From: Flavisolibacter sp.
GTDB lineage: Bacteria > Bacteroidota > Bacteroidia > Chitinophagales > Chitinophagaceae
Reading direction: 5' to 3'
DNA: 64,000 bases
NCBI GenBank assembly: GCA_035645595.1
Contig: DASQMG010000322.1
Coordinates: 2,041 to 66,040, forward strand
Shown: in pieces, positions 7,927 to 61,602 of the stretch
Numbering within the stretch: the stretch's first letter is position 1
Layout: every line of letters begins with the position of its first letter
Made by a program: the position numbers and the translations under genes
The notes under the pieces: generated by a model
What the model saw: only the letters and a program-made list of their open reading frames with translations
What the model was told of the DNA's origin: nothing
Databases searched by the model: none

Positions 7927-8706
7927 TTATGTGGTTGCCTTTGCTTTAAATTTTTCAATGGCTTCCTTTGTAAAATTGCTCAACACTAAACGACCGCTGA
8001 TCTCTGCCCTTTGGGGTAACAAGTTGTCCCAATCTTCGGTTCCCTGCCAAAAAACTTTTTTTATTTCTGCCATGGCCTCCGTGCTGGAGTGGGCTAACTG
8101 GTTAGACAGCCTTTGTATAGACTCGTCCATGCCTTCGGTGGTTGGGTGGCACTCGGCATAAAGACCTTTTCTCCGTGCCCAGTCGGCATTGCGCCACATG
8201 GCGGCATCTATAGCCAACTGCGAAAAGGCAGACATTCCTATTTTACGTTGTATGGCAGGGCCTACTACAAACGGACCAATGCCTACAGCCAGTTCACTCA
8301 ATTTTACATCGGCTGTTTCATTGGAGATAGCGTAATCGACGGCTGCTGCCAACCCTACTCCACCGCCAACACATTTACCATGAATGCGGCCTATAATTAG
8401 TTTTGGACATTTGCGCATAGCGTTGATGACTTCTGCAAAGCCATTAAAAAATTCATAGCCTTTTTCTTTGTTTTCAATTTTTGTAAGTTCATCAAAAGAG
8501 GCACCGGCGCAAAAAGCTTTATCACCACCGGAACGTATCACCATAACTTTTGTGTCTTTATCAATGCCGGCGGTATGAATTTCGTTAGCCAAATCTTTTA
8601 ATAGCTGCCGGGGCAACGAATTGCTTTGTGGGTGAAAGAATTCGATGGTGGTAATACCGTTGTGTGTTTCAACATTTACATAGCCATTTATTATATCCTT
8701 TGCCAT
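7927..8706 (-). CDS. Enoyl-CoA hydratase/isomerase (methylglutaconyl-CoA hydratase-like)
   Basis: AFCAGASF, GKCVGGGVGL, LSELAVGIGP. Confidence 0.85.
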   Translation of the reverse strand: MAKDIINGYVNVETHNGITTIEFFHPQSNSLPRQLLKDLANEIHTAGIDKDTKVMVIRSGGDKAFCAGASFDELTKIENKEKGYEFFNGFAEVINAMRKCPKLIIGRIHGKCVGGGVGLAAAVDYAISNETADVKLSELAVGIGPFVVGPAIQRKIGMSAFSQLAIDAAMWRNADWARRKGLYAECHPTTEGMDESIQRLSNQLAHSSTEAMAEIKKVFWQGTEDWDNLLPQRAEISGRLVLSNFTKEAIEKFKAKATT

Positions 8707-8727
8707 ATCGGTTCGCTTTTACTTAAG

Positions 8728-10785
8728 TTAAGACTTCTTTTTTACCATCGTTAAAATTGTTGCTATTCCCGCTATCTCTCCCGTCTCATCCAGCATCTCA
8801 ACCAGCCATTTTACAATACCCTTTGGAATATCGGCCTCATCATCCGGCTTTGCATCCTGCGGCAGTTTTTCTTTGCAGGTGAAACGAATGGTCAGTTCTG
8901 CACCGGCGTAAACAGGTTTGGTAAACCGTAATTCATCAATACCATAATTTAGGAGCACTGGCCCTAAATCGCTACCATCAACAAATAAGCCTGCAGCTGC
9001 ACTTAAAATAAAGTAGCCATGCGCTACCTGCTTTTCAAACATGGTCCCGGTAAAATCAGTTGCCCTTTTATGCGCATAAAAATGATCGCCGCTCAGTTCG
9101 GCAAAAGCATCAATATCTTCTGAAGTAATAATGCGTTTTTCTGTAATAATCTGATCGCCAACCTGCAATTCCTCGAAGTGTTTTTGGAAAGGGTGCACGG
9201 CTGTCTGAATGCCCTTTGCACCAGGCTGATAGGATTGTGTGATGGCAGTAATTGTTGTTGGAGAACCCTGGATGGCTACCCGCTGCATATAATGTTTTAC
9301 CCCACGAACACCACCCATTTCTTCTCCGCCACCGGCACGGCCAGGACCGCCATGTATCAGCATGGGGAGGGGCGAACCATGACCGGTACTTTCTTTTGCA
9401 CAATCACGGTTTAAAACTAAAATACGTCCATGGTGTGTGCCGGCATTCACAACAAAATCCGTTGCCAGTTTATCATCGGCAGTAATAATAGAGCAGCACA
9501 AAGACCCTTTCCCTTTTTTAGTTAATTGAATAGCTTCCCCTAAGTCTTTATAAGGCATAATGGTGCTGACCGGCCCAAAACATTCTATGTCATGCACCGC
9601 TTCAGTTTGAAAAGGCTTTTCGTTGAGTAAAAGCAGTGGGGATAAGAACGAACCGTTGGCTGCATCGGCATCAATCACCTCAATACTGTCTAAAGTTCCA
9701 TATACAATTTGTGCGGAGGCCAACAGCTTTTGAACATTGGCTTTTACCTCATCACGCTGGCCTTTTCCTGCAAGGGCGCCCATGCGTACTTTATCGTTTA
9801 GTGGATTACCAATAACCGTTTGTGCCAAGGATTTTCCAATAGCGAGGTAAGCATCTTCCAGTAGATGTTCCGGTACGAATATCCTGCGCACCGCCGTACA
9901 TTTTTGCCCGGCTTTCACAGTCATTTCCTTGCGGATTTCTTTTATAAAAATATCCCACTCCGGGGAGCCTGGATTTACATCGCTACCAAGCACTAATGCA
10001 TTTAAAGAGTCGGCTTCCATATTAAATGGAACACTTTCTTCTGAAATAGCTTTGCCACCTTTTAGCATAAGGCCTGTTGTTTTAGAACCGGTAAAGGTTA
10101 CCACATCCTGCGACGTGACATGATCGAGCATATCGCCAGCGCTACCACATAATAACTGCAGGGCACCTTCTGGTAAAATGTCAGAAGCAATAATTTCTTT
10201 TACAACAATTTCCGTTAAATAGGAGGTGATGGATGCAGGTTTTACCACTGCAGGCACACCGGCTAACCAGTTCACCGCGCATTTTTCCAGCATGCCCCAG
10301 ATAGGAAAATTATAAGCATTGATATGAACCGCAACGCCTTCTTTTGGTACTAACAAATGATGGCCCATAAAGCTGCCACCCTTGCTTAAACCAATTGGGT
10401 CGCCATCGGTGCAGTAAGGCAGATCGGGAAATTTTCTGCGAAGCGATGCATTGGCAAATAAATTTCCAATACCACCTTCTATATCAATCCAGCTATCGGC
10501 TTTTGTAGCTCCTGAACGGTAACTAACCTGGTAAAAAATTTCTTTTTTCTCCATCAGGTGCAACGCCAATGCCTTCAACATACGGCCACGTTCGTGAAAA
10601 GTCAGTTTCCGTAAATTAGCATTACCCACTTCTCTTCCATATTGCAAAACAGAAGCAAAATCCAACCCCTTAGTTGTAGCAGCAGCAATGCTTTCACCGG
10701 TTACAGCATCATATAATAGTTGGCCTTCGCCATCACCGGCTATCCAGCTGCCGGCAACATAATTTTCTAATTTATTTACAAGCAT
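8728..10785 (-). CDS. paaZ: Bifunctional oxepin-CoA hydrolase / aldehyde dehydrogenase
   Basis: ALDH domain (HINAYNFP, EADSLN, GQKCTA) fused to a MaoC domain (FAELSGDHFYAH, AHGYF). Confidence 0.95.
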   Translation of the reverse strand: MLVNKLENYVAGSWIAGDGEGQLLYDAVTGESIAAATTKGLDFASVLQYGREVGNANLRKLTFHERGRMLKALALHLMEKKEIFYQVSYRSGATKADSWIDIEGGIGNLFANASLRRKFPDLPYCTDGDPIGLSKGGSFMGHHLLVPKEGVAVHINAYNFPIWGMLEKCAVNWLAGVPAVVKPASITSYLTEIVVKEIIASDILPEGALQLLCGSAGDMLDHVTSQDVVTFTGSKTTGLMLKGGKAISEESVPFNMEADSLNALVLGSDVNPGSPEWDIFIKEIRKEMTVKAGQKCTAVRRIFVPEHLLEDAYLAIGKSLAQTVIGNPLNDKVRMGALAGKGQRDEVKANVQKLLASAQIVYGTLDSIEVIDADAANGSFLSPLLLLNEKPFQTEAVHDIECFGPVSTIMPYKDLGEAIQLTKKGKGSLCCSIITADDKLATDFVVNAGTHHGRILVLNRDCAKESTGHGSPLPMLIHGGPGRAGGGEEMGGVRGVKHYMQRVAIQGSPTTITAITQSYQPGAKGIQTAVHPFQKHFEELQVGDQIITEKRIITSEDIDAFAELSGDHFYAHKRATDFTGTMFEKQVAHGYFILSAAAGLFVDGSDLGPVLLNYGIDELRFTKPVYAGAELTIRFTCKEKLPQDAKPDDEADIPKGIVKWLVEMLDETGEIAGIATILTMVKKKS

Positions 10786-24551: not shown

Positions 24552-24618
24552 ACTATAATTTGTGGAAACGAAGAAATAGTTCCTGTTTTTTGAGCCAGGC
24601 CGACGGGAGGATTGTTTA

Positions 24619-24641
24619 GCTTTTGTTGCGTCGCACACTTC
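24619..24641 (+). repeat. Dispersed GTTGCGTCGCAC repeat, copy 1
   Basis: GCTTTTGTTGCGTCGCACACTTC. Confidence 0.8.
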
Positions 24642-24779
24642 AGGGTTGTAATCGCTATTGTGCAAAATACAAAACAGCCAATTAAGCTACTACCGGCAAG
24701 GATACGGGCTAGCTGTCCTGGCGGTTGCCTACTCAAAAACGCTGGGCCACTTTTTGTAGTAGTTATAAAAACAGTTTTT

Positions 24780-38164: not shown

Positions 38165-38388
38165 CATAATGTTAAGCCTACTTGTTAGATGTATCCCTCG
38201 CAAAGCCCCGGACCAGGCTATGCGATTCAATCATTTTGTACGATGCGGATACAAAAAGGATTTCCGCTTCTATCCCTCACGCAGGACAGGCCTCGCTCCG
38301 GGAGTGCAGTTGCCAGAAAAACATTGCCTTTTCTATTACTATCAATAAACTTAAACCACGCTTTTATTTTTTAGCTTTGAAGACTAAT

Positions 38389-51944: not shown

Positions 51945-52017
51945 TAAAAGCTTTTTTAATAATAGCTTTAAAGTAACAAAGGATATTTCTTTGTACTTAG
52001 CTGCATTGCTACTATCA

Positions 52018-52043
52018 ACTTTCGTTGCGTCGCACTCTTGTAC
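52018..52043 (+). repeat. Dispersed GTTGCGTCGCAC repeat, copy 3
   Basis: ACTTTCGTTGCGTCGCACTCTTGTAC. Confidence 0.8.
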
Positions 52044-52337
52044 GCTTTGTAATTTTACTGGGCTAAAATCTTAAAAAGCCCGCACTAAAAGTGTTTTATC
52101 ATTTTATTAATGTTCACCTGCAATTATACAAGTATAGCTGCTAAATAAAAATCTTATTACTGAGGAATCTGGCAATAGAACGATTTGTCAACTCACGGCT
52201 TATTGACACATCAATAGCTGCACTATCTACACAAACATTAAACAGCCATAAAAACACTGATGGTATAGTCTTTTATGTTTTTACCTCATCATCTTAATAG
52301 TATGAAAATAAACGCTGCATCACTAAAAACATAAACC

Positions 52338-53093: not shown

Positions 53094-55010
53094 TTATGAT
53101 AAGTACTTCGCCACTATCGGCAACCTTCTTCCAACGCCAAAGGCTTTTGTGCTTACCCTTATGATGGGACAGAACTGTGCCCGCTTGTATTCATTCATAT
53201 TCACCATCTTTAAAATTCTATTTACCAAAGCTGCATCATAACCTTGCGCAATAATTTCTTTTGGCCCCTGGCGCAACTCAATATAATTATACAACACCCG
53301 GTCTAAAACTGGATAATCAGGAAGACTGTCAGAATCTTTTTGATTAGGTCGTAATTCTGCCGAAGGCGCTTTGCTTAAAATATGTTCCGGGATAATTTCT
53401 CCGTTGCGGTTGATGTAACGGGCCAGTGCGTAAACCTGCATTTTGTATAGATCTCCCAACACACCTAAGCCTCCCGCCATATCGCCATACAGCGTTCCAT
53501 AGCCTGTAGCCAGCTCACTTTTGTTAGATGTATTAAGTAAGATGTAGCCAAACTTATTGGCCAGGGCCATTAATAAATTTCCCCTTACACGGCTTTGAAT
53601 ATTTTCTTCTGCCACGTTAAAGGGCAGGTCGCCAAAAATAGGTTTTAGTGAAGTGGAAAATTGATCAAAGAGTTCTTTGATGGTAACAATATCATAGCGG
53701 TTATCCAGGTTCTTACTTAACTGTTCCGCATCGCTTACCGAATGCCCCGAAGAATACTGCGAAGGCATCAGCAGAACATGCACATTCTCTTTGCCTAAAG
53801 CCTCAACAGCAAGGGCCTGCACTACGGCACTGTCAATACCACCGCTGGCACCAAGCGTTGCTTTTGTAAAGCCCATCTTTTGAAAATAATCGCGGATGCC
53901 CAATACCAGTGCGCAATAAATTTCGTGCATGTTTTTATCATCGGTTAAGTAGGCGATGATGTCGGAACCTTTGCCTACGTCGGCAGCGGAGTAATAATAC
54001 ACTTCACCCCGGCCCGGGCCAGGTTGCGGAGGGGGGGCTGGCGCAAGCGGCCCTTTTTGCTGTGCATCGCTGTTATCTCTATTTGTATCAAGAGGCGATG
54101 GTTCAATAACTGTGGTAGTGTTTTCATTACTTACTTCATGCGGCGCTACGGGCTCTTTTAATTGCGTTGGACCCGTAAGGTGTAATGCCTCTTCTTCATT
54201 AGTGGTGGGCTGTACGTCGGCAGTTCCTCTCTCTCCCTTTGCTGGAGAGGGGCCGGAGGCGAGCTCATACAAATAATAATCTTCTTCGAAGTAAGCCATA
54301 TCTTTTACACAGTTGCCTTCTGCATCGTAAACCAAACTGCCGCCATCAAAAACAATCTCGGTTTGGGAGCCAACCGCATTACAATACAACATGGGAATCT
54401 TGTACTTGTCAACATGCGCTTTCATAATACTGTTTCTAACAGTATCCTGTGCATAATTGTAAGGCGAAGCAGAAAGATTCAGCATTACATCCGGGCTTTC
54501 CTTTATCAACATTTCCATTGGTGTTTGGCGGTACAAAGGATTATCGCCTAAATTCCAGATGTCTTCGCAAATAGTGACGGCTAATTTTTTTCCTTTAAAC
54601 GGAATGCACTTCCATTCAAAGGCCGGTTCAAAATAACGGTTCTCATCAAACACATCATAGGTTGGCAAAAGGGTTTTGTGTATCTCCGCTTTTATCTCGC
54701 GTTCATGCAAAAGAAAAACAGCATTAAATAAATCTTTGCCTTCCCGCAAAGGGTTCCTGGCAGGGCTTCCTATTAATACACCAATGGTATCAGCATGTTC
54801 TTTTATGGTATCTATCGCCTCGTAACATTGGTTGATGAAGTCGTGGAATTCAACAAAATCACGGGGAGGATAGCCACATACACAAAGCTCCGAAAACAGC
54901 ACCAGGTCCGCACCGGCGGCTTTTGCTTTATCAATGCCGTCAATTATTTTTTTGGTGTTAGCGCTAAAGTTGCCAATATGGTAGTTTTGCTGTGCAAGAA
55001 AAATCTTCAT
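53094..55010 (-). CDS. nadE: Glutamine-dependent NAD+ synthetase with an inserted linker
   Basis: Nitrilase domain (SEL..GYPP.D, K.LLPTYDVFDE, ICEDIW) plus SGGIDS, ENIQSR, NKSE, PSAELRP.QKD.DSLP. Confidence 0.95.
   Translation of the reverse strand: MKIFLAQQNYHIGNFSANTKKIIDGIDKAKAAGADLVLFSELCVCGYPPRDFVEFHDFINQCYEAIDTIKEHADTIGVLIGSPARNPLREGKDLFNAVFLLHEREIKAEIHKTLLPTYDVFDENRYFEPAFEWKCIPFKGKKLAVTICEDIWNLGDNPLYRQTPMEMLIKESPDVMLNLSASPYNYAQDTVRNSIMKAHVDKYKIPMLYCNAVGSQTEIVFDGGSLVYDAEGNCVKDMAYFEEDYYLYELASGPSPAKGERGTADVQPTTNEEEALHLTGPTQLKEPVAPHEVSNENTTTVIEPSPLDTNRDNSDAQQKGPLAPAPPPQPGPGRGEVYYYSAADVGKGSDIIAYLTDDKNMHEIYCALVLGIRDYFQKMGFTKATLGASGGIDSAVVQALAVEALGKENVHVLLMPSQYSSGHSVSDAEQLSKNLDNRYDIVTIKELFDQFSTSLKPIFGDLPFNVAEENIQSRVRGNLLMALANKFGYILLNTSNKSELATGYGTLYGDMAGGLGVLGDLYKMQVYALARYINRNGEIIPEHILSKAPSAELRPNQKDSDSLPDYPVLDRVLYNYIELRQGPKEIIAQGYDAALVNRILKMVNMNEYKRAQFCPIIRVSTKAFGVGRRLPIVAKYLS
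54224..54264. repeat. REP-like palindrome inside nadE
   Basis: 29/41 ungapped identity to the intergenic copy at 1371-1411. Confidence 0.7.
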
Positions 55011-55076
55011 CTTCGTTAATAGTTGTGTAGTTTCCAAAGGTCAGTAATAATTCAAAACCAAAGCCGTTTATCCCCC

Positions 55077-56111
55077 ATGCGTTTCATAAGTTTAGCCATC
55101 GTGTTGCTTCTTTTCTCCTGCAATAATAAAAACGAGGCGCCCGATGTTTCCCGCATTAAAACTGATGTTACCATCCACCGCTTTGATAAAGACTTTTTTT
55201 CGATAGATACTTTACAGTTGCAGGCTTCGCTAACAAAGCTCGAAGGTGCCTACCCTGCTTTTCTTCCGTTGTACTTTAAATTTTTTGCACCGGTGAGGGA
55301 AATGGCGGCGCAGCAGGCCATTCCGTTTGACAGTGCCCTGGTTCAATACATTCGTTTCATCAAGCCACTTTATCAATCGGTAACACAAAAATTTGCGGAT
55401 GTTAGTTCTATTGAAAAAGGGCTGGAAGAAAATCTGCGTTATGTAAAACATTATTTTCCGCAATTTGCGTTGCCGGTTGTACTTACTTCCGTGGAAAGCC
55501 TGAACCCTGAGAACCCTACCGAGATTTATGGCACTACCTATTACCACGATACTCTCATCATCAGCCTGCAAATGTTTTTGGGAAAAGACTATCCGGCTTA
55601 CGATCCGAGCCAATACCCCGATTACCTGCGCCGCCGTTTTAGTGCGGAATACATTGTTCCTAATTCCATCAGAGCCATTGCCGGCGAGTTGTATTTAGAC
55701 AGCAGCCAAAGCGCCTCGCTAATTGAGCAGATGATTGAAAAAGGAAAGCAGTGGTGGCTGATGAAAAAGTTTTTACCCGATACACCTGACAGTTTAATTA
55801 CGGGTTATTCGGCTGCCCAAACAGAATGGGTGCAAAAGGAGGAAGGCAACATTTGGGGATACATCAATCAAAACGAAAAACTATTTTCTATAGAGCTGCC
55901 TGCTATTCAAACTTATATTGGCGAAGCCCCATTCACGCAGGCCTTACCACATGATAATTATGGCGGTGGCGCACCGGGCAATATTGGTCCGTGGGTGGGG
56001 TGGCGCATTATTTCAAAGTTTGAAGAGAAGAATGGAAAGCTTACTGTTAACCAGGTTTTACGTACAACGGCAAAGAAGATATTTGAGGAAGCGAAATATA
56101 AGCCGAAGTAG
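55077..56111 (+). CDS. gldB: Gliding motility lipoprotein GldB
   Basis: Lipobox LFSC; RFDKDFF, ISLQMFLG..Y..YP.Y..RF, MIEKGK, APFT..PG.IG.WVGWRI; divergent from nadE. Confidence 0.8.
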   Translation: MRFISLAIVLLLFSCNNKNEAPDVSRIKTDVTIHRFDKDFFSIDTLQLQASLTKLEGAYPAFLPLYFKFFAPVREMAAQQAIPFDSALVQYIRFIKPLYQSVTQKFADVSSIEKGLEENLRYVKHYFPQFALPVVLTSVESLNPENPTEIYGTTYYHDTLIISLQMFLGKDYPAYDPSQYPDYLRRRFSAEYIVPNSIRAIAGELYLDSSQSASLIEQMIEKGKQWWLMKKFLPDTPDSLITGYSAAQTEWVQKEEGNIWGYINQNEKLFSIELPAIQTYIGEAPFTQALPHDNYGGGAPGNIGPWVGWRIISKFEEKNGKLTVNQVLRTTAKKIFEEAKYKPK

Positions 56112-56213
56112 TTGGTGGTTTACTATTGTTTAGATTTGATACCTCTCTTACTGTTGATCGCTATCAAAATCAAATGCTATATTTTTTGTTACCAGCGCAG
56201 GAGTATCTATTGG

Positions 56214-56239
56214 GCTTTTGTTGCGTCGCACACTTGTAC
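56214..56239 (+). repeat. Dispersed GTTGCGTCGCAC repeat, copy 4
   Basis: GCTTTTGTTGCGTCGCACACTTGTAC. Confidence 0.8.
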
Positions 56240-56397
56240 ATTCTTATCGGTAAGCAGCAAAAGAAATCCTTGCGCTACTTGGTATTGATTATTAATTGAG
56301 TTTGGAGCAAGAACATGCGTTAATTAACTGTTAGCGGTCATTGCAGAGCGACACCCAACCGACTAATAAATAAAAAAGATCAATGATAATTTGTACA

Positions 56398-57537
56398 ATG
56401 AAAAAATATTTCCGGCAAAGGTTAGCTTTTACTTTTCTTTCAATACTTATTTTTGGCACTTCCTGCAACGGACAAGTTGCAAAAGATCTACCAAAAGAAA
56501 AGGCAAGGGAAACACAAATAGTATCTGACGGACAGCCAAAACTTATAAAAACCCAAGGCTCACAAAAAAGCGACAATGTTAATAGTAGTTTGCAAGACAA
56601 AGCAGGTAACCTGTGGTTTGGCACTACGAAGGAAGGCCTTTATAAGTACGACGGCAAGGTGTTTACCCAATTTACAGTAACCAATGGGCTAATCAGTAAT
56701 AAGGTTTCCAGTATTTTGGAAGATAAAGATGGTAAGATTTGGATAGGGACTGACGTTGGACTTTGTCTTTACGATGGTAAAACATTTTCCAAAGTCCCAA
56801 TCCCTGTAAGAAAAGATCTGCCTCCCAACAAGTACCACAACACGCACAATGTATTCAGTATCATGCAGGACAAAGGCGGGAAGCTATGGTTCGCCACCAT
56901 TGATGGTGTTTATATCTACGATGGCAAGACCTTTATTCCGTTTATAATTAAAGAAGACGGACCTGGTTTTATGAGCAGTAACCATAATGTGGAATATATT
57001 TTAGAAGATAAAGGGGGTAACATATGGTTCGGTGGGCGGGCTACTGAAGGTGTGTATCGTTACGATGGTAGATCCATAACTAACCTTAAAGTAAACGAAC
57101 AAAAAGAGTTCAATTGGGCCTGGCCTGCTCTGCAAGACAAGCAAGGAAATATTTGGTTCAGCAATTGGTCCGGAGCCTACCGTTATGATGGTAAATCATT
57201 TACCAGGTTTGCAAAAAAAGATGGCTTATCAAGTGATATGGTTATCCGGATTATAGAAGACAAAAAGCGAAACCTTTGGTTTGGCTGCGGTAGTGCCAGA
57301 GGTTTTAACAACGGTGGCATTTGTCGTTTCGACGGCAAAACCTTTACATGTTTGACCACCGGGGATGGCCGGGTTAACAACGATGCTTGGACAATTTTGG
57401 AAGATAGAAAGGGTCATTTGTGGGTCGGCACAAGGAACACAGGTTTGTGGAGTTACGATGGAAAATCATTTACCCATTTTACAGAAAAACATGAAGAAGT
57501 CAATACTTCTCCTTTAATGCCTTTTGGAAGACAGTAG
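56398..57537 (+). CDS. Two-component-regulator-type beta-propeller lipoprotein (stand-alone)
   Basis: Lipobox GTSC; seven repeats of [LM][QE]D[KR]xx[NKH][LI]W..[YF]DG[KR]. Confidence 0.85.
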   Translation: MKKYFRQRLAFTFLSILIFGTSCNGQVAKDLPKEKARETQIVSDGQPKLIKTQGSQKSDNVNSSLQDKAGNLWFGTTKEGLYKYDGKVFTQFTVTNGLISNKVSSILEDKDGKIWIGTDVGLCLYDGKTFSKVPIPVRKDLPPNKYHNTHNVFSIMQDKGGKLWFATIDGVYIYDGKTFIPFIIKEDGPGFMSSNHNVEYILEDKGGNIWFGGRATEGVYRYDGRSITNLKVNEQKEFNWAWPALQDKQGNIWFSNWSGAYRYDGKSFTRFAKKDGLSSDMVIRIIEDKKRNLWFGCGSARGFNNGGICRFDGKTFTCLTTGDGRVNNDAWTILEDRKGHLWVGTRNTGLWSYDGKSFTHFTEKHEEVNTSPLMPFGRQ

Positions 57538-57608
57538 AAAAGTGAGGATTGAGCTTTACAATGGAGCTGCTTATATTAATTTTCAACAGCAGACATTGGT
57601 GAGCACAA

Positions 57609-57759
57609 GCAACGAAACGCTAACATGCGGTTTATGCAGTGGAGGCGAACGCGCAGGTAACAAGCTATTTATTTACTAATCTGCCTTATATCTTTAGCAC
57701 GAACTAAGGGAAGGGTAATGGCACCAATGCATAAATACCCTTCCGTTGTGCGAAACCTT
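57609..57759 (+). repeat. attC-like site 1
   Basis: CGCTAAC..GGTTTATGCAGTGG ... CCAATGCATAAATAC..CCGTTGTGCG forms an imperfect long palindrome. Confidence 0.65.
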
Positions 57760-57782
57760 ACTCGTAGTTCAAAGCATCTAAC

Positions 57783-58616
57783 ATGAAGTACAAAATATTT
57801 TTCGCTGCACTTATTATAACTGTATGTTCAAAGGCTTCTTTTGCTCAGGTAAATAAAAATAGAAATTCAAAAAGCGCTATCATTTGCCTGACCTACGATG
57901 ATGGTTTGGAGACACAACTATCAACCGTTATTCCACAGTTGGACTCTTTAGGTCTGAAAGCTACCTTCTTTTTGAACTCCATTCAGGGTTCCTCTCAATC
58001 CGTTCTAATCGGCCAAACACCTGAAGCGGTTCTGGGGTGGACGAGTGCTGCCCGGAACGGACACGAGTTGGCAAACCATACCCTATTTCACCCTTGTCCT
58101 GAAAAATTAGGGTGGGAAAAAAAGGTTGCAATCGACAGTTATACCATTGATAAAATCATAGAAGAAATTAGCACCCAAAACGCTATCCTATCACTCTTGG
58201 ACCCGAAAAGAAAAACACGGTCTTTTGCCTTTCCCTGCAATAATGTTTTTGTTGGCAGTACGGATTATTCCAAGGTTATCAAAGACAGAGGGTTGGTACG
58301 ATTTGGCCGGGGAGGCGGGGATAGCAATAGCGTCATTACCAATTTTAGAAATTTAAACACCATGCAAGTTCCTTCCTGGCATGTATGGACCGGAACAACG
58401 CTTCAGGAACTTATCGCCTTTGCCGAAAAGGTAAAAAGAGCAGGGGGCATGGGTGTATATCAGATACACGGAGTCGGTGGACAAGTTTTTCAGATAAGCA
58501 CAGAAACGCACAAGGCATTTCTGGCGTATTTAAAAGACCATCAGGAGGACTATTGGGTAACAACTTTTTCCGAAGCAATGGAATTTATTACTTCTAAACC
58601 ACTCAACAAAAAGTAG
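57783..58616 (+). CDS. Polysaccharide deacetylase (CE4/NodB), secreted
   Basis: LTYDDG, ATFF, GHELANHTLFHP, SFAFPC, IHGV. Confidence 0.88.
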   Translation: MKYKIFFAALIITVCSKASFAQVNKNRNSKSAIICLTYDDGLETQLSTVIPQLDSLGLKATFFLNSIQGSSQSVLIGQTPEAVLGWTSAARNGHELANHTLFHPCPEKLGWEKKVAIDSYTIDKIIEEISTQNAILSLLDPKRKTRSFAFPCNNVFVGSTDYSKVIKDRGLVRFGRGGGDSNSVITNFRNLNTMQVPSWHVWTGTTLQELIAFAEKVKRAGGMGVYQIHGVGGQVFQISTETHKAFLAYLKDHQEDYWVTTFSEAMEFITSKPLNKK

Positions 58617-58619
58617 TTA

Positions 58620-58710
58620 AAGGCCTCGCCTAACCTGAACTGTGTAAAAAACCAAATAAATTTTCAGGGAATAGGCCCTCTTCGCAAACACCTTCCCTGT
58701 TGGCGGTAAT
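58620..58710 (+). repeat. attC-like site 2 (shortened)
   Basis: GCCTAAC (RYYYAAC) ... GCAAACACCTTCCCTGTTGGCGGTAAT. Confidence 0.55.
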
Positions 58711-58764
58711 TCGAACAAAGAGCTTGCTAAACAAAAATTGAAAATACTTGTTAGGAACGACTGT

Positions 58765-59817
58765 ATGAAAATACCTATACTATCCTTCCTGCTGGTTCTC
58801 GGCCAGTCAATTTTTGGCCAGTTAAACTCCTTTACCAACCTGTTGCAACAGTATCACCAAAACAAGGGTTTCAATGGTGCGGTTCTTATGGCATCCAACG
58901 GCCAAATTGAGTACATGAATGCAATTGGGGAAGCCGATAAGAAAGCCGGACAACGTTTGACGGTCAGCTCGAAATTCAAGATTGCCTCTATGACCAAAAT
59001 GTTTACGGCTGTTTTGGTGATGAAGCTTGTGGAAGAAGGCAAGATAAGCCTGGAGCAATCATTCGGAAACTACTTCCCCGGTTATAGAGGTGAGGGAAAG
59101 GATAAGGTTACTGTTCATCAGCTGCTGACCTATTCCTCTGGTATAAAAAACGAACTAGAGCCATTGGGGATGAGGCCTTACCAGGCAAAGTTTTCGTTGG
59201 ATGAATTCATTGATAAATATTGCTCGGGGAAACTGGTTATGTTACCGGGTGAAAAAAGTACGTATGGCAATACTGAGTACATTATCCTGCAAAAAATAAT
59301 CGAGAATGTTTCGGGTAAAAGCTTTGAAAAATTATTACAGGATGTGGTGTTGAAGCCATTGGGGCTGAAAAATACAGGTGTCGTCAAAACCCATTTGAAG
59401 ACTGGTGAACTGGTTAAGACCTACACTTACCGTGATAGTATAAAGGCATTTGCTGCCGACGCACCTTATTATACTGAGAACTATTTTGCAGCCGGGGCTA
59501 TATATTCAACCCTGGAAGATCTGCTACATTTCAGTAATGCTCTTTTTCAGCAAAAAATTTTAAAGCCGGAAACTGTAGAACAAATGCTCACCATCAATGA
59601 GAAACTGGGACATACCACCTATGGCTTTTGGGGCTCACGGGGCTGGGGCAATATCAATGAACCTTTCTATTATAGAACAGGAGGTATTTTAGGAGCCAGG
59701 GCAAACTGGATTTATACTGTAGGAACAAAAAAGACAATTATCGTTTTGAGCAATACAGATGCAACCAACCTGTATGAGCTTTCGGAGCAGTTATATTTAT
59801 TGAGTGCTAATCGATAA
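58765..59817 (+). CDS. Serine hydrolase, beta-lactamase class C-like family
   Basis: FKIASMTK (SxxK), LLTYSSG, YGN (YxN), AAGAIYST, RTGG. Confidence 0.88.
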   Translation: MKIPILSFLLVLGQSIFGQLNSFTNLLQQYHQNKGFNGAVLMASNGQIEYMNAIGEADKKAGQRLTVSSKFKIASMTKMFTAVLVMKLVEEGKISLEQSFGNYFPGYRGEGKDKVTVHQLLTYSSGIKNELEPLGMRPYQAKFSLDEFIDKYCSGKLVMLPGEKSTYGNTEYIILQKIIENVSGKSFEKLLQDVVLKPLGLKNTGVVKTHLKTGELVKTYTYRDSIKAFAADAPYYTENYFAAGAIYSTLEDLLHFSNALFQQKILKPETVEQMLTINEKLGHTTYGFWGSRGWGNINEPFYYRTGGILGARANWIYTVGTKKTIIVLSNTDATNLYELSEQLYLLSANR

Positions 59818-59842
59818 TAGATCAAAAGAGAGACAAGCATAA

Positions 59843-59993
59843 TTTGTACACTACCGTTACCGGCAGCCTTATAAAAGGGGGTTTGATGATTAATGTTTTA
59901 GCTGACTATCTTTATGGTACAACAGTAACGAAGTAAAGCGATAGAATAAAACATCTCGTCTTCACAAATTGTAAACGTTGCCAGTAAGTCAAT
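59843..59993 (+). repeat. attC-like site 3 (degenerate)
   Basis: CTACCGTTACCGGCAGCCTTATAAAAGGGG ... CTCGTCTTCACAAATTGTAAACGTTGCCAGTAA. Confidence 0.45.
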
Positions 59994-60016
59994 CATCCTC
60001 ACTCAATATTCGAAAG

Positions 60017-60658
60017 ATGAAGCATTTACTAATTCTTATTATTTGCTTACACTCTTTGAGCATTTGCGGGCAGGAAGTAAAACCTGACTTTGACGGGCAC
60101 AAATGGGAAGCACCTTATTATCTTCCGGTCCCAAAAGACTGGACAATAGAGCGGTTTCTTATTCCCATCTCTTTTGCTCCTCAAATTCCCTACAAAGGAG
60201 TGGAAGATATTCGCTTCACTCCCGGCTGGGGCAATGTAAAAAGCGGCGACTATTGGAGTTATGCTTTCCTATGGTATCTTGATGGAAGCCCTAAAACAGA
60301 TGCACGAATAATTGCCAGTAATTTAAAAGCGTACTACACCGGCTTAGCTACGGTTAATGTTGACAGTGCAAAACTTAAAGCTCTCCCCGAAAACGTTAAG
60401 GCAGTTGCCACATCTTTCAAAAACGCGCCAGCCAGCAAAGGAGATTTGAAAACATATACCGGTACAGTTGCTATGCTTGATTATATGCAATTGAAACGGA
60501 TAACACTTAACTGCATAGTACATGTAAGGTCCTGTTCAAAAGAAAACAAAACCATCATGTTCTACCAATTATCACCCAAGCCTCTGTCCCATAACGTTTG
60601 GACAGGCCTTAACAAGCTATGGCTGGATTTTACGTGCAAAAAACAGGATACTCCATAA
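60017..60658 (+). CDS. Secreted hypothetical protein
   Basis: Signal peptide; W..E.F..P..FAP.I.YKG.EDIRF.PGW...YWSYAF.W motif. Confidence 0.75.
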   Translation: MKHLLILIICLHSLSICGQEVKPDFDGHKWEAPYYLPVPKDWTIERFLIPISFAPQIPYKGVEDIRFTPGWGNVKSGDYWSYAFLWYLDGSPKTDARIIASNLKAYYTGLATVNVDSAKLKALPENVKAVATSFKNAPASKGDLKTYTGTVAMLDYMQLKRITLNCIVHVRSCSKENKTIMFYQLSPKPLSHNVWTGLNKLWLDFTCKKQDTP

Positions 60659-60822
60659 TAATATTGCCTCTACTTTTCGCTTATGTTGGCGTGGCGGCCA
60701 ATGACTGTTTGCCGCTGAAAAATAGCAAGCAACGCCGTATGATTCATATCCAGCTTAGTAATCAAGTTTTGCCTGCACCATTACAGTGGTCAGAGCATTT
60801 CGGCGTAGCATAAGTTTGTAGT

Positions 60823-61275
60823 GTGAGATATTTGCTTCTTTTTGTTACCCTCCTTACTTTATCCTGCAAACAACACATGATAAAAACACATGCCTTCCGC
60901 CTGAAGCCCGGCGATGACCTTCGCAATGAAATAGAAGCTTATGTAAAAACGGCCAATATCAAAGCGGGATGGATCAGCACTTGCGTGGGGAGCTTAACCG
61001 CTTATAACATTTGCTTTGCCAATCAACCGGAAGGAAGCAAAGGCACCGGTCATTTTGAAATTGTAAGTCTTGTTGGTACCCTCTCCGTCACTGGCTTACA
61101 TATCCATATCAGCCTGAGCGATAGCACAGGTAAAACTACCGGGGGCCATTTGCTGGACAGCAACATCGTTTACACTACGGCCGAAATAATTATTCAGGAA
61201 GATGATGATTTTGTTTTTACCCGCGAGAAAGATGGCAGCACGCCATGGGAAGAACTACAAATAAAAAAGAAGTAA
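60823..61275 (+). CDS. PPC/DUF296 domain protein
   Basis: FRLKPGDDL, TCVGSL, FEIVSLVGT, HIHISLSD..G...GGHL, TTAE. Confidence 0.88.
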   Translation: MRYLLLFVTLLTLSCKQHMIKTHAFRLKPGDDLRNEIEAYVKTANIKAGWISTCVGSLTAYNICFANQPEGSKGTGHFEIVSLVGTLSVTGLHIHISLSDSTGKTTGGHLLDSNIVYTTAEIIIQEDDDFVFTREKDGSTPWEELQIKKK

Positions 61276-61320
61276 GGAAGGCTTTTCAACTATTCATTTG
61301 ATGTATTGTTTTCCTTATCA

Positions 61321-61602
61321 ATGGAGAGCTTATCACCAACAGATGTTGACCGTATCATTGAAATGGCCTGGGAAGACCGTACCCCTTTTGAAGCGATTGC
61401 GTACCAGTTTCAGTTACCCGAAAGTGAAGTGATAACACTGATGCGGCAACAACTGAAAGCATCAGCGTTTAAACGCTGGCGCCGCCGTGTGCAGGGCCGC
61501 ACCACCAAACATATTTTTAAAAGGAGCAACGAAGTCACCAGGTTTAAATGTAACCGCCAACGTGCCATTACAGGCAACAAAATTTCAAAAAAGAACTACT
61601 GA
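61321..61602 (+). CDS. TIGR03643/DUF2805 family protein
   Basis: RIIEMAWEDRTPFEAI..QF.L.E.EVI.LMR..LK.S.F..WR.RV.GR.TKH. Confidence 0.85.
   Translation: MESLSPTDVDRIIEMAWEDRTPFEAIAYQFQLPESEVITLMRQQLKASAFKRWRRRVQGRTTKHIFKRSNEVTRFKCNRQRAITGNKISKKNY

Follow-up and report, generated by a model that had tools for sequence, protein, structure and literature searches.

Chromosomal integrons are the closest described systems to the gene array analysed here, which lies behind gldB in a 64,000-nt stretch (the window) of a Flavisolibacter sp. genome (contig DASQMG010000322.1, positions 2,041 to 66,040 of the forward strand). In the superintegron of Vibrio cholerae the attC sites are the approximately 125-nt Vibrio cholerae repeats (VCR), and a special domain of the integron integrase, IntI, reads extrahelical bases of folded attC sites. 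In a passage of PMC9668308 that cites Messier & Roy 2001, IntI is defined by an additional domain. Recombinases found near attC sites without such a domain were judged not to be integron integrases, and these cases never involved more than two sites; in integrons with an 'inverted integrase', intI is oriented as the cassettes are (PMC4889954). Almost no integrons have been reported in Bacteroidetes proper: the authors of IntegronFinder found only In0 there in 2016, and by 2022 they had a single complete integron, that of Salinibacter (PMC9024848). A full-text search found no published account of arrays or of a recombinase like those described below in Chitinophagales or Bacteroidota, an absence that does not prove novelty.

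The source genome (G000; soil, Chitinophagaceae-like, 88.7% complete) has some 85 attC-like sites that carry the cassette signature in full, and it lacks IntI; few integrons are reported for its phylum. Positions 56302-59987 of the window are probably a short, recombinase-less and partly decayed three-cassette array of this widespread integron-like system, whose recombinase would be an Xer-like enzyme. Sites were scored with R1, a covariance model of the site family built on alignment A3 (49 near-complete G000 copies with 8-nt flanks), which was scanned over the whole window with no filters. R1 matches above noise number only three, all on the plus strand and all in spacers. The parts of the array are listed here, with open reading frames (ORFs) as assigned by Pfam; below, the other G numbers denote comparison genomes, C numbers contigs and L numbers extracted loci.

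56302-56332, plus strand: attI-like site TTGGAGCAAGAACATGCGTTAATTAACTGTT, the putative array start, with an inferred crossover in the GTT at 56330-56332
56331-57745, plus strand: cassette 1, with a Reg_prop beta-propeller lipoprotein ORF (56383-57537) and its own attC
57618-57751, plus strand: attC1, the best-kept site; R1 62.9 bits, E 3e-13, full length (match 57614-57755)
57746-58699, plus strand: cassette 2, with a CE4 polysaccharide deacetylase ORF (57783-58616; Polysacc_deac_1), with the attC1 GTT and the one at 58699-58701 as its bounds
58628-58707, plus strand: attC2, truncated; R1 15.6 bits, E 0.06, 77 model positions missing (match 58646-58709)
58700-59977, plus strand: cassette 3, with a beta-lactamase-fold serine hydrolase ORF (58765-59817; Beta-lactamase, 187 bits)
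59854-59987, plus strand: attC3, degenerate; R1 39 bits, E 1.6e-7, full length; nhmmer E 8e-4

The site family to which these spacers belong comprises 86 copies in G000 by iterative nhmmer and 84 by R1 (E ≤ 0.01). All copies on any one contig are co-oriented, at a spacing of 335-2130 nt, and arrays reach, for example, seven sites on C407, six each on C98 and C173, and five on C239. Each site is an imperfect hairpin of about 134 nt that leads from an R'' box ending in YTAAC through a two-part stem and a loop of about 70 nt to an R' box beginning with GTTRGC. This is the R''-L''…L'-R' imperfect palindrome with conserved structure that characterises attC sites, with cores looser than RYYYAAC/GTTRRRY (e.g., CGCTAAC and GTTAGCG). 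The 41 inter-site units of G000 have a median length of 653 nt, and in 37 of them the largest ORF (median 173 aa) is co-oriented with the sites. When 18 cassette proteins were compared with Pfam, ten had no match, two were GNAT acetyltransferases, and one each was a DinB, thioredoxin-like, Sel1, WD40, FMN-binding and beta-lactamase-fold protein. A gene of the fold seen in cassette 3 is also a cassette of the C407 array. Toxin-antitoxin pairs are common in chromosomal integrons; one cassette of an array in G015 (L057:12744-13339) carries two overlapping small ORFs (93 and 105 aa) in a toxin-antitoxin-like layout.

The stem of the site is preserved by structure. Covariation was counted over the 49 copies on a hand-written three-helix structure consisting of R''/R' and two L''/L' halves around a small internal loop. 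The score of 0.393 compares with 0.161±0.011 after shuffling (0 of 500 shuffles reach the observed value) and with at most 0.129 when the partners are slid; a change on both sides of a pair was seen in 204 cells, and the two stem helices have compensatory changes in 12-22 sequences per pair. RNAalifold on the same 49 copies found part of the stem, with compensatory changes in nine of ten pairs. The outer R''/R' pairs are unpaired in situ in 26-33 of the 49 copies, and the inner AAC/GTT pairs hold in most. Such poor outer pairing is what an integron array predicts, in which the bases that follow GTT are already part of the next cassette.

The boundaries themselves were analysed by comparing the 5 nt before the AAC of site n with the reverse complement of the 5 nt after the GTT of site n-1, the share of units expected to match at four or more positions being 15-17%. 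In G000 the same-cassette mean was 3.76 of 5, with at least four matches in 15 of 21 units (binomial 5e-8), against control means of 1.94 in situ and 2.21 all-versus-all (P(≥4) = 0.17). Arrays of G015, G323, G219, G007 and G019 gave 15 perfect units out of 21 and 16 with at least four matches (binomial 6e-10), their controls averaging 2.5 in situ and 2.17 all-versus-all. Matched ends such as GTT|GTGCG…CGCAC|AAC and GTT|GGGCG…CGCCC|AAC thus belong to the same cassette, and this pairing shows, at the level of sequence, that cassettes are separate units whose joints lie inside the invariant GTT, like those of integrons. Together with the co-oriented arrays and covarying stems, it bears out the proposal, made from the letters of the window before any search (the sequence-only reading), that these cassettes are joined at G|TT.

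In the window, attC1 consists of R'' CGCTAAC (57618-57624), L'' (57629-57647), L' (57719-57737) and R' GTTGTGC (57745-57751). In an alignment with copies on another contig and in three other species, its similarity starts at (G)CTAAC and ends at CCGTT, and the alignment also shows an inner inverted repeat of about 20 bp. A DNA search further showed that pieces of the window spacers recur in related genomes with unrelated flanks. A homologue of the propeller cassette in another species, G009 (C306), has the same GTT|AGCGGTCATTGCAGAGCGACACCC start and the same …GCAACGAAcCGCTAAC end, with near-identical sequence in the 30 nt after GTT and an attC of 104.8 bits whose interior differs from that of the window. 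Upstream of the GTT, likeness between the two loci is confined to the attI-like motif. This motif, ending in GTT and followed by unrelated sequence, occurs at seven places in G000, with attC-like sites downstream at three of the six others. In G057 and G015 a similar motif, GCGTATATCTTAGTGTT, follows the stop codon of the array-linked recombinase gene at a distance of about 150 nt. From these comparisons we read 56302-56332 as an attI-like site and a candidate insertion point for cassettes.

The sequence-only reading had described four co-oriented genes, each in a unit that begins with GTT and ends with the approximate reverse complement of its own beginning. The strings that it quoted lie where it placed them and its gene calls hold, the fourth without a Pfam family. 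As a free search, the complementarity equals that of shuffled controls, and the original evidence was therefore weak: the best Smith-Waterman scores of the flanking spacers were 11, 11, 7 and 9, against 11.4, 9.9, 9.4 and 10.1 for dinucleotide shuffles; the pairs chosen by eye score 5-9, and inverted repeats of such quality are plentiful in the region; and, folded as single-stranded DNA, the four spacers reach z values of -2.0 to +0.6 relative to shuffles. These tests lack specificity, and the comparison anchored on the repeat family supersedes them. Once the repeat family fixes the positions, the first two units are real. For unit 1, GTT|AGCGG at 56330 faces ACGCT|AAC at 57617-57624 with 4/5 matches (7/7 for CGCTAAC against GTTAGCG), and the G009 cassette, having the same ends, validates it. 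For unit 2, GTT|GTGCG at 57745 faces CGCCT|AAC at 58627-58634 with 3/5 matches. Unit 3 does end in a true site, attC3, in degenerate form. Unit 4 falls outside the array: R1 has no plus-strand match in 60659-60822, 3' of the fourth ORF, which is not demonstrably a cassette because it lacks a site of its own. The three sites in 57618-59987 form a cluster of attC sites lacking an integrase (CALIN; at least two attC within 4 kb and no integrase near), as judged by R1 and not by IntegronFinder's model.

As a check, the sequence-only reading had suggested scanning the genome and other Bacteroidota for more sites and for a tyrosine recombinase next to arrays. An Xer-like tyrosine recombinase of about 350-400 aa adjoins arrays in G015 (a complete congener with 39 sites), G057 (a 99%-complete relative with 44 sites; two loci), G323 (another order), and G219, G222 and G247 (other classes of the phylum). 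It lies upstream of and co-oriented with the cassettes in G015, where ten sites follow it, and in G057, G323, G219 and G222; in G161 and G119 recombinase and cassettes are apparently divergent. The catalytic R-K-H-R-H-Y residues are kept. Alignment with XerA structures is contiguous (PDB 4a8e XerA, E 2e-39), and relative to IntI4 (2a3v) 24 aa stand in place of the 67 that form the IntI additional domain, about 43 aa fewer. All seven array-linked enzymes are without the IntI insertion when aligned to a canonical IntI of G219 (429.7 bits), and all seven carry an extra N-terminal domain of about 110-130 aa with the motif GARWS…CWxLP. Pfam gave only a weak DUF5710 match to this domain (E 2e-4), in the doubled protein of G247. 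That protein, an array-linked recombinase of 582 aa (L066; G247:C38:102771-104519, minus strand), has two tandem copies of the N-terminal domain.

Canonical IntI was not found with TIGR02249 (integron integrase; cut-off 265 bits) in G000, in complete G015 or in G057, nor in any of 16 genomes of the family. The best match in the G000 genome search reached 98.7 bits, and whole-protein scores were at best 174 bits in G000 and 170.6 bits for the G015 homologue; in G015 and G057 the matches are split, at 80-96 bits. All of these matches, those of G000 included, skip model positions 180-240; an integron integrase would have the IntI-specific additional domain around patch III. Nor does the enzyme classify as a XerC, XerD or XerA resolvase, which would pass its equivalog, be about 300 aa long and use a single dif site: its NCBIfam scores lie below every cut-off (XerA_Arch 206.8, cut-off 220; XerC 182, cut-off 335; XerD 182, cut-off 330), and G000 has separate Xer-type genes of about 299 aa on C599 and C443. 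In a small tree, in which two phage-type integrases form rogue long branches, the canonical IntIs stand on one side of a branch with 89/100 support and the N-domain enzymes with Xer on the other. We infer that this enzyme is the recombinase because of its co-oriented position at the head of arrays in most of the loci compared, its catalytic residues, and the N-terminal domain combined with the lack of the IntI insertion. The sequence-only suggestion of an IntI-like or other tyrosine recombinase, and possibly of a distinct system, agrees with this result, and that reading is supported as a whole.

R1 sites are widespread, occurring in 57 of 61 genomes of the genus (56 of 60 when the unpublished G067 is left aside), in 90 of 150 high-quality genomes of the order (52 of 82 genera) and in 51 of 150 high-quality genomes of the phylum, other classes included. 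Of those 150 genomes of the order, 68 have the N-terminal domain. Canonical IntI is present in 90 of 300 genomes of the phylum, nearly all in other classes, and in one genome of the order, G083. Seven canonical intI genes have no R1 match in the surrounding sequence to a distance of about 10 kb, and 20 more have none in their flanks of approximately 1.5 kb; among these loci, that of G370 has an obvious canonical attC array. The site family is thus specific and keeps company with the N-domain recombinase instead of IntI. The canonical integron of G370 (L102; G370:C1:1888900-1908899) has an intI of 448.5 bits and at least 12 attC repeats of about 124 nt (…ATAACAAGCGTTTCAAGCGGACTCG…CGCCGCTTAAACGCCGGGTCGTTA), and beside it stands a separate tandem array of approximately 165-nt repeats at 8000-9500.

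On the reading that we favour, each cassette is one gene with a hairpin site of about 134 nt whose sequence varies while its pairing is kept, and it entered its array as a circle, through site-specific recombination in the invariant GTT. Insertion of this kind makes the bases at the start of a cassette match those before the AAC of its own site and not those of the abutting site, and up to this point the sequences bear the reading out. The Xer-like enzyme would act on the gldB array in trans, since the only copy in G000 lies on another contig. Several observations weigh against this reading. Its support comes from sequence comparison. PF00589 detected no tyrosine recombinase gene on the window's contig, which is 66.9 kb long, as the sequence-only reading had expected in placing the enzyme elsewhere, and the sole homologue in G000 sits on a separate 1.8-kb contig with no array attached. 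The array-linked recombinases are not resolved as one clade in the tree. Co-occurrence in the order is imperfect, with sites and N-terminal domain together in 53 genomes, sites only in 37, the domain only in 15 and neither in 45. Two sites of the window are damaged: attC2 keeps R'' GCCTAAC (58628-58634) and its 3' half (L' and CTGTT|GGCGG) and has lost its 5' arm to about 45 nt of another conserved element, while attC3 has GGC for AAC in R'' and several broken stem pairs, with its R' GTT at 59977-59979. Five other assemblies with an identical CE4 protein carry an identical array, in a strain comparison that recovered near-identical strains only; this invariance gives no sign of current activity at the locus. 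The damaged sites and this identity together suggest that the gldB array is probably fixed and no longer exchanges cassettes. Elsewhere, contigs of four soil and biocrust metagenomes match the C239 array up to the GTT of three sites (L039 2465, 3948 and 5935) and then continue with other sequence, and two of them skip exactly one C239 cassette. Because the sides of these joints are 21-24 nt long and come from contigs only, they are a hint and not proof of cassette rearrangement in that array.

The plainest alternative is that these are ordinary chromosomal genes and spacers, whose end-complementarity is a chance pattern picked by eye. The shuffled controls, the unremarkable spacer folds and the identical gene order in five assemblies would all agree with it. 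It fails on the spacers themselves, which match a covariance model made from 49 other copies (E 3e-13 and 1.6e-7), and on the arrays that the family forms, with a cassette-boundary signature at P of about 1e-8 to 1e-9; we regard it as refuted, with next to no probability left. Gene order had been proposed as a discriminating comparison: it does not vary among the near-identical assemblies, and the content after gldB differs across five species.

If the sites were instead self-spreading elements, akin to repetitive extragenic palindromes or miniature inverted-repeat transposable elements (REP/MITE-like) or to terminators, the genes would not be mobile units and the recombinase would be coincidental. 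Intergenic repeats of other kinds do abound in G000 (el0 has 177 copies), and the sites lie just 3' of genes, as terminators do. Spread of this kind would not lead the 5 nt that follow one copy to pair with the 5 nt that precede the next, and it would leave unexplained that homologous cassettes keep both ends across species and loci and that arrays in six or more genomes, from several classes, have the recombinase at their head; we consider this explanation very unlikely. Somewhat less remote, and still improbable, is a classical integron, in which ordinary attC sites are served by a canonical IntI that is unassembled or encoded elsewhere and the locus is a plain CALIN. The architecture, the site polarity and the GTT crossover are those of integrons, the genome is incomplete, and canonical IntI is common in other classes of the phylum and occurs in one genome of the order. 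This explanation has to contend with the lack of a TIGR02249 match above cut-off in complete G015, in G057 and throughout the family sample, with array-side recombinases devoid of the IntI insertion, and with the absence of R1-type sites next to 27 canonical intI genes.

The array is flanked by chromosomal genes and neighbours other elements, as follows.

53094-55037, minus strand: nadE, with gldB the conserved left chromosomal flank of the array
55023-56111, plus strand: gldB (Pfam GldB_lipo, 300.8 bits)
56171-56262, plus strand: el0 repeat with core TTGCGTCGCACnCTTGTAC, about 85 nt, intergenic, directly 5' of the attI-like site and outside the recombination site
60017-60658, plus strand: fourth ORF, after the last site
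60823-61602, plus strand: PCC-domain and DUF2805 genes (Pfam), the right chromosomal flank

The nadE-gldB pair is kept in five species of the genus, and all sequence downstream of the pair differs. In G015 a PCC homologue lies 3.4 kb from gldB, with genes of mixed orientation between the two, and in G023 an attC lies close to the PCC gene. Rfam, at gathering and E ≤ 5 thresholds, gave no match in 56000-61400. The sole Rfam family match in the window is a Flavo-1 RNA (RF01705) at 38207-38291 on the minus strand, with 43.2 bits against a gathering score of 42.

The copy number of el0 in G000 comes from iterative nhmmer, and related genomes hold many more copies. Its consensus is …TTTTTTGTACCnGGC…GCTTnTGTTGCGTCGCACTCTTGTACGTTC…CTATTCAGCA, and a mini-palindrome within it, TGCG-T-CGCA, becomes TGTG-T-CACA in a few copies. 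Further copies in the window lie at about 24585-24672 (plus strand), 30796-30687 (minus strand) and 51979-52088 (plus strand). All but six of the G000 copies (171/177) lie between genes and point either way with respect to their neighbours, and el0 directly precedes four of the seven attI-like sites. A structured RNA or a promoter was considered and rejected for el0, there being no consensus fold, no covariation and no orientation rule relative to genes.

The segment in place of the 5' arm of attC2, at 58630-58669, is 92-95% identical to an element in G000 C454, G002 and G014. It belongs to an element of about 105 nt that starts at an attC-like R'', GCTAAC|ATGAACTGTGTAAAAAACCAAATAAATTTTCAGGG…CTTGTTTTAGCAG, of which the window has the first 45 nt or so, fused to the 3' half of attC2. 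Copies at L028:845-960, L029:2190-2075 and L026:203-100 follow small cassette-like genes, often at contig ends, and on the opposite strand the element reads as a terminator-like hairpin followed by a T-run. In G002 the neighbouring ORFs encode a serine hydrolase, a glyoxalase and a UvrA-like protein. The end of an insertion sequence or of a group II intron was rejected for this segment, with no transposase or reverse transcriptase nearby.

Beyond the locus, it seems to us an even call whether the arrays represent a second, IntI-independent integron lineage spanning much of the class and some neighbouring classes. Such a lineage would have its own attC family, an attI-like site and an Xer-like recombinase whose N-terminal domain replaces the IntI insertion in handling folded single-stranded sites, with dozens of scattered arrays per genome that surveys requiring intI_Cterm would miss or log as stray CALINs. 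If the N-domain enzyme is indeed the recombinase, integron-type cassette capture would have arisen or persisted with a different protein solution, a large hidden pool of cassettes in soil Bacteroidota would come into view, and a new enzyme of structure-specific single-strand recombination could be put to the test.

Set against known systems, the recombinase resembles XerA, XerC and XerD, which are its best sequence matches and share its side of the tree, and differs from them in its N-terminal extension, its array-head position and its scores below the equivalog cut-offs. With the 'inverted integrase' integrons of Treponema and others it shares a place upstream of, and co-oriented with, the cassettes; theirs, unlike ours, is a true IntI with the additional domain. 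Chromosomal integrons differ in using a recombinase with the IntI insertion near patch III where ours has the extra N-terminal domain, in forming one large array instead of many scattered round the chromosome, and in the spacers between R and L boxes, which here are asymmetric (about 4 nt versus about 8 nt); in addition, this site family was not detected beside the canonical intI genes of the same phylum. In most other respects the arrays are like sedentary chromosomal integrons and CALINs: they are co-oriented, they consist mostly of single small ORFs, each followed by an imperfect palindrome of 120-140 nt running from …YTAAC to GTTR…, and their content (GNAT, DinB, glyoxalase and many unknowns) is typical of cassettes. 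As in chromosomal integrons, sites within a lineage share sequence and keep their stems by structure, the cassette ends pair across GTT, a putative attI-like site begins the array, and many arrays stand without an adjacent recombinase.

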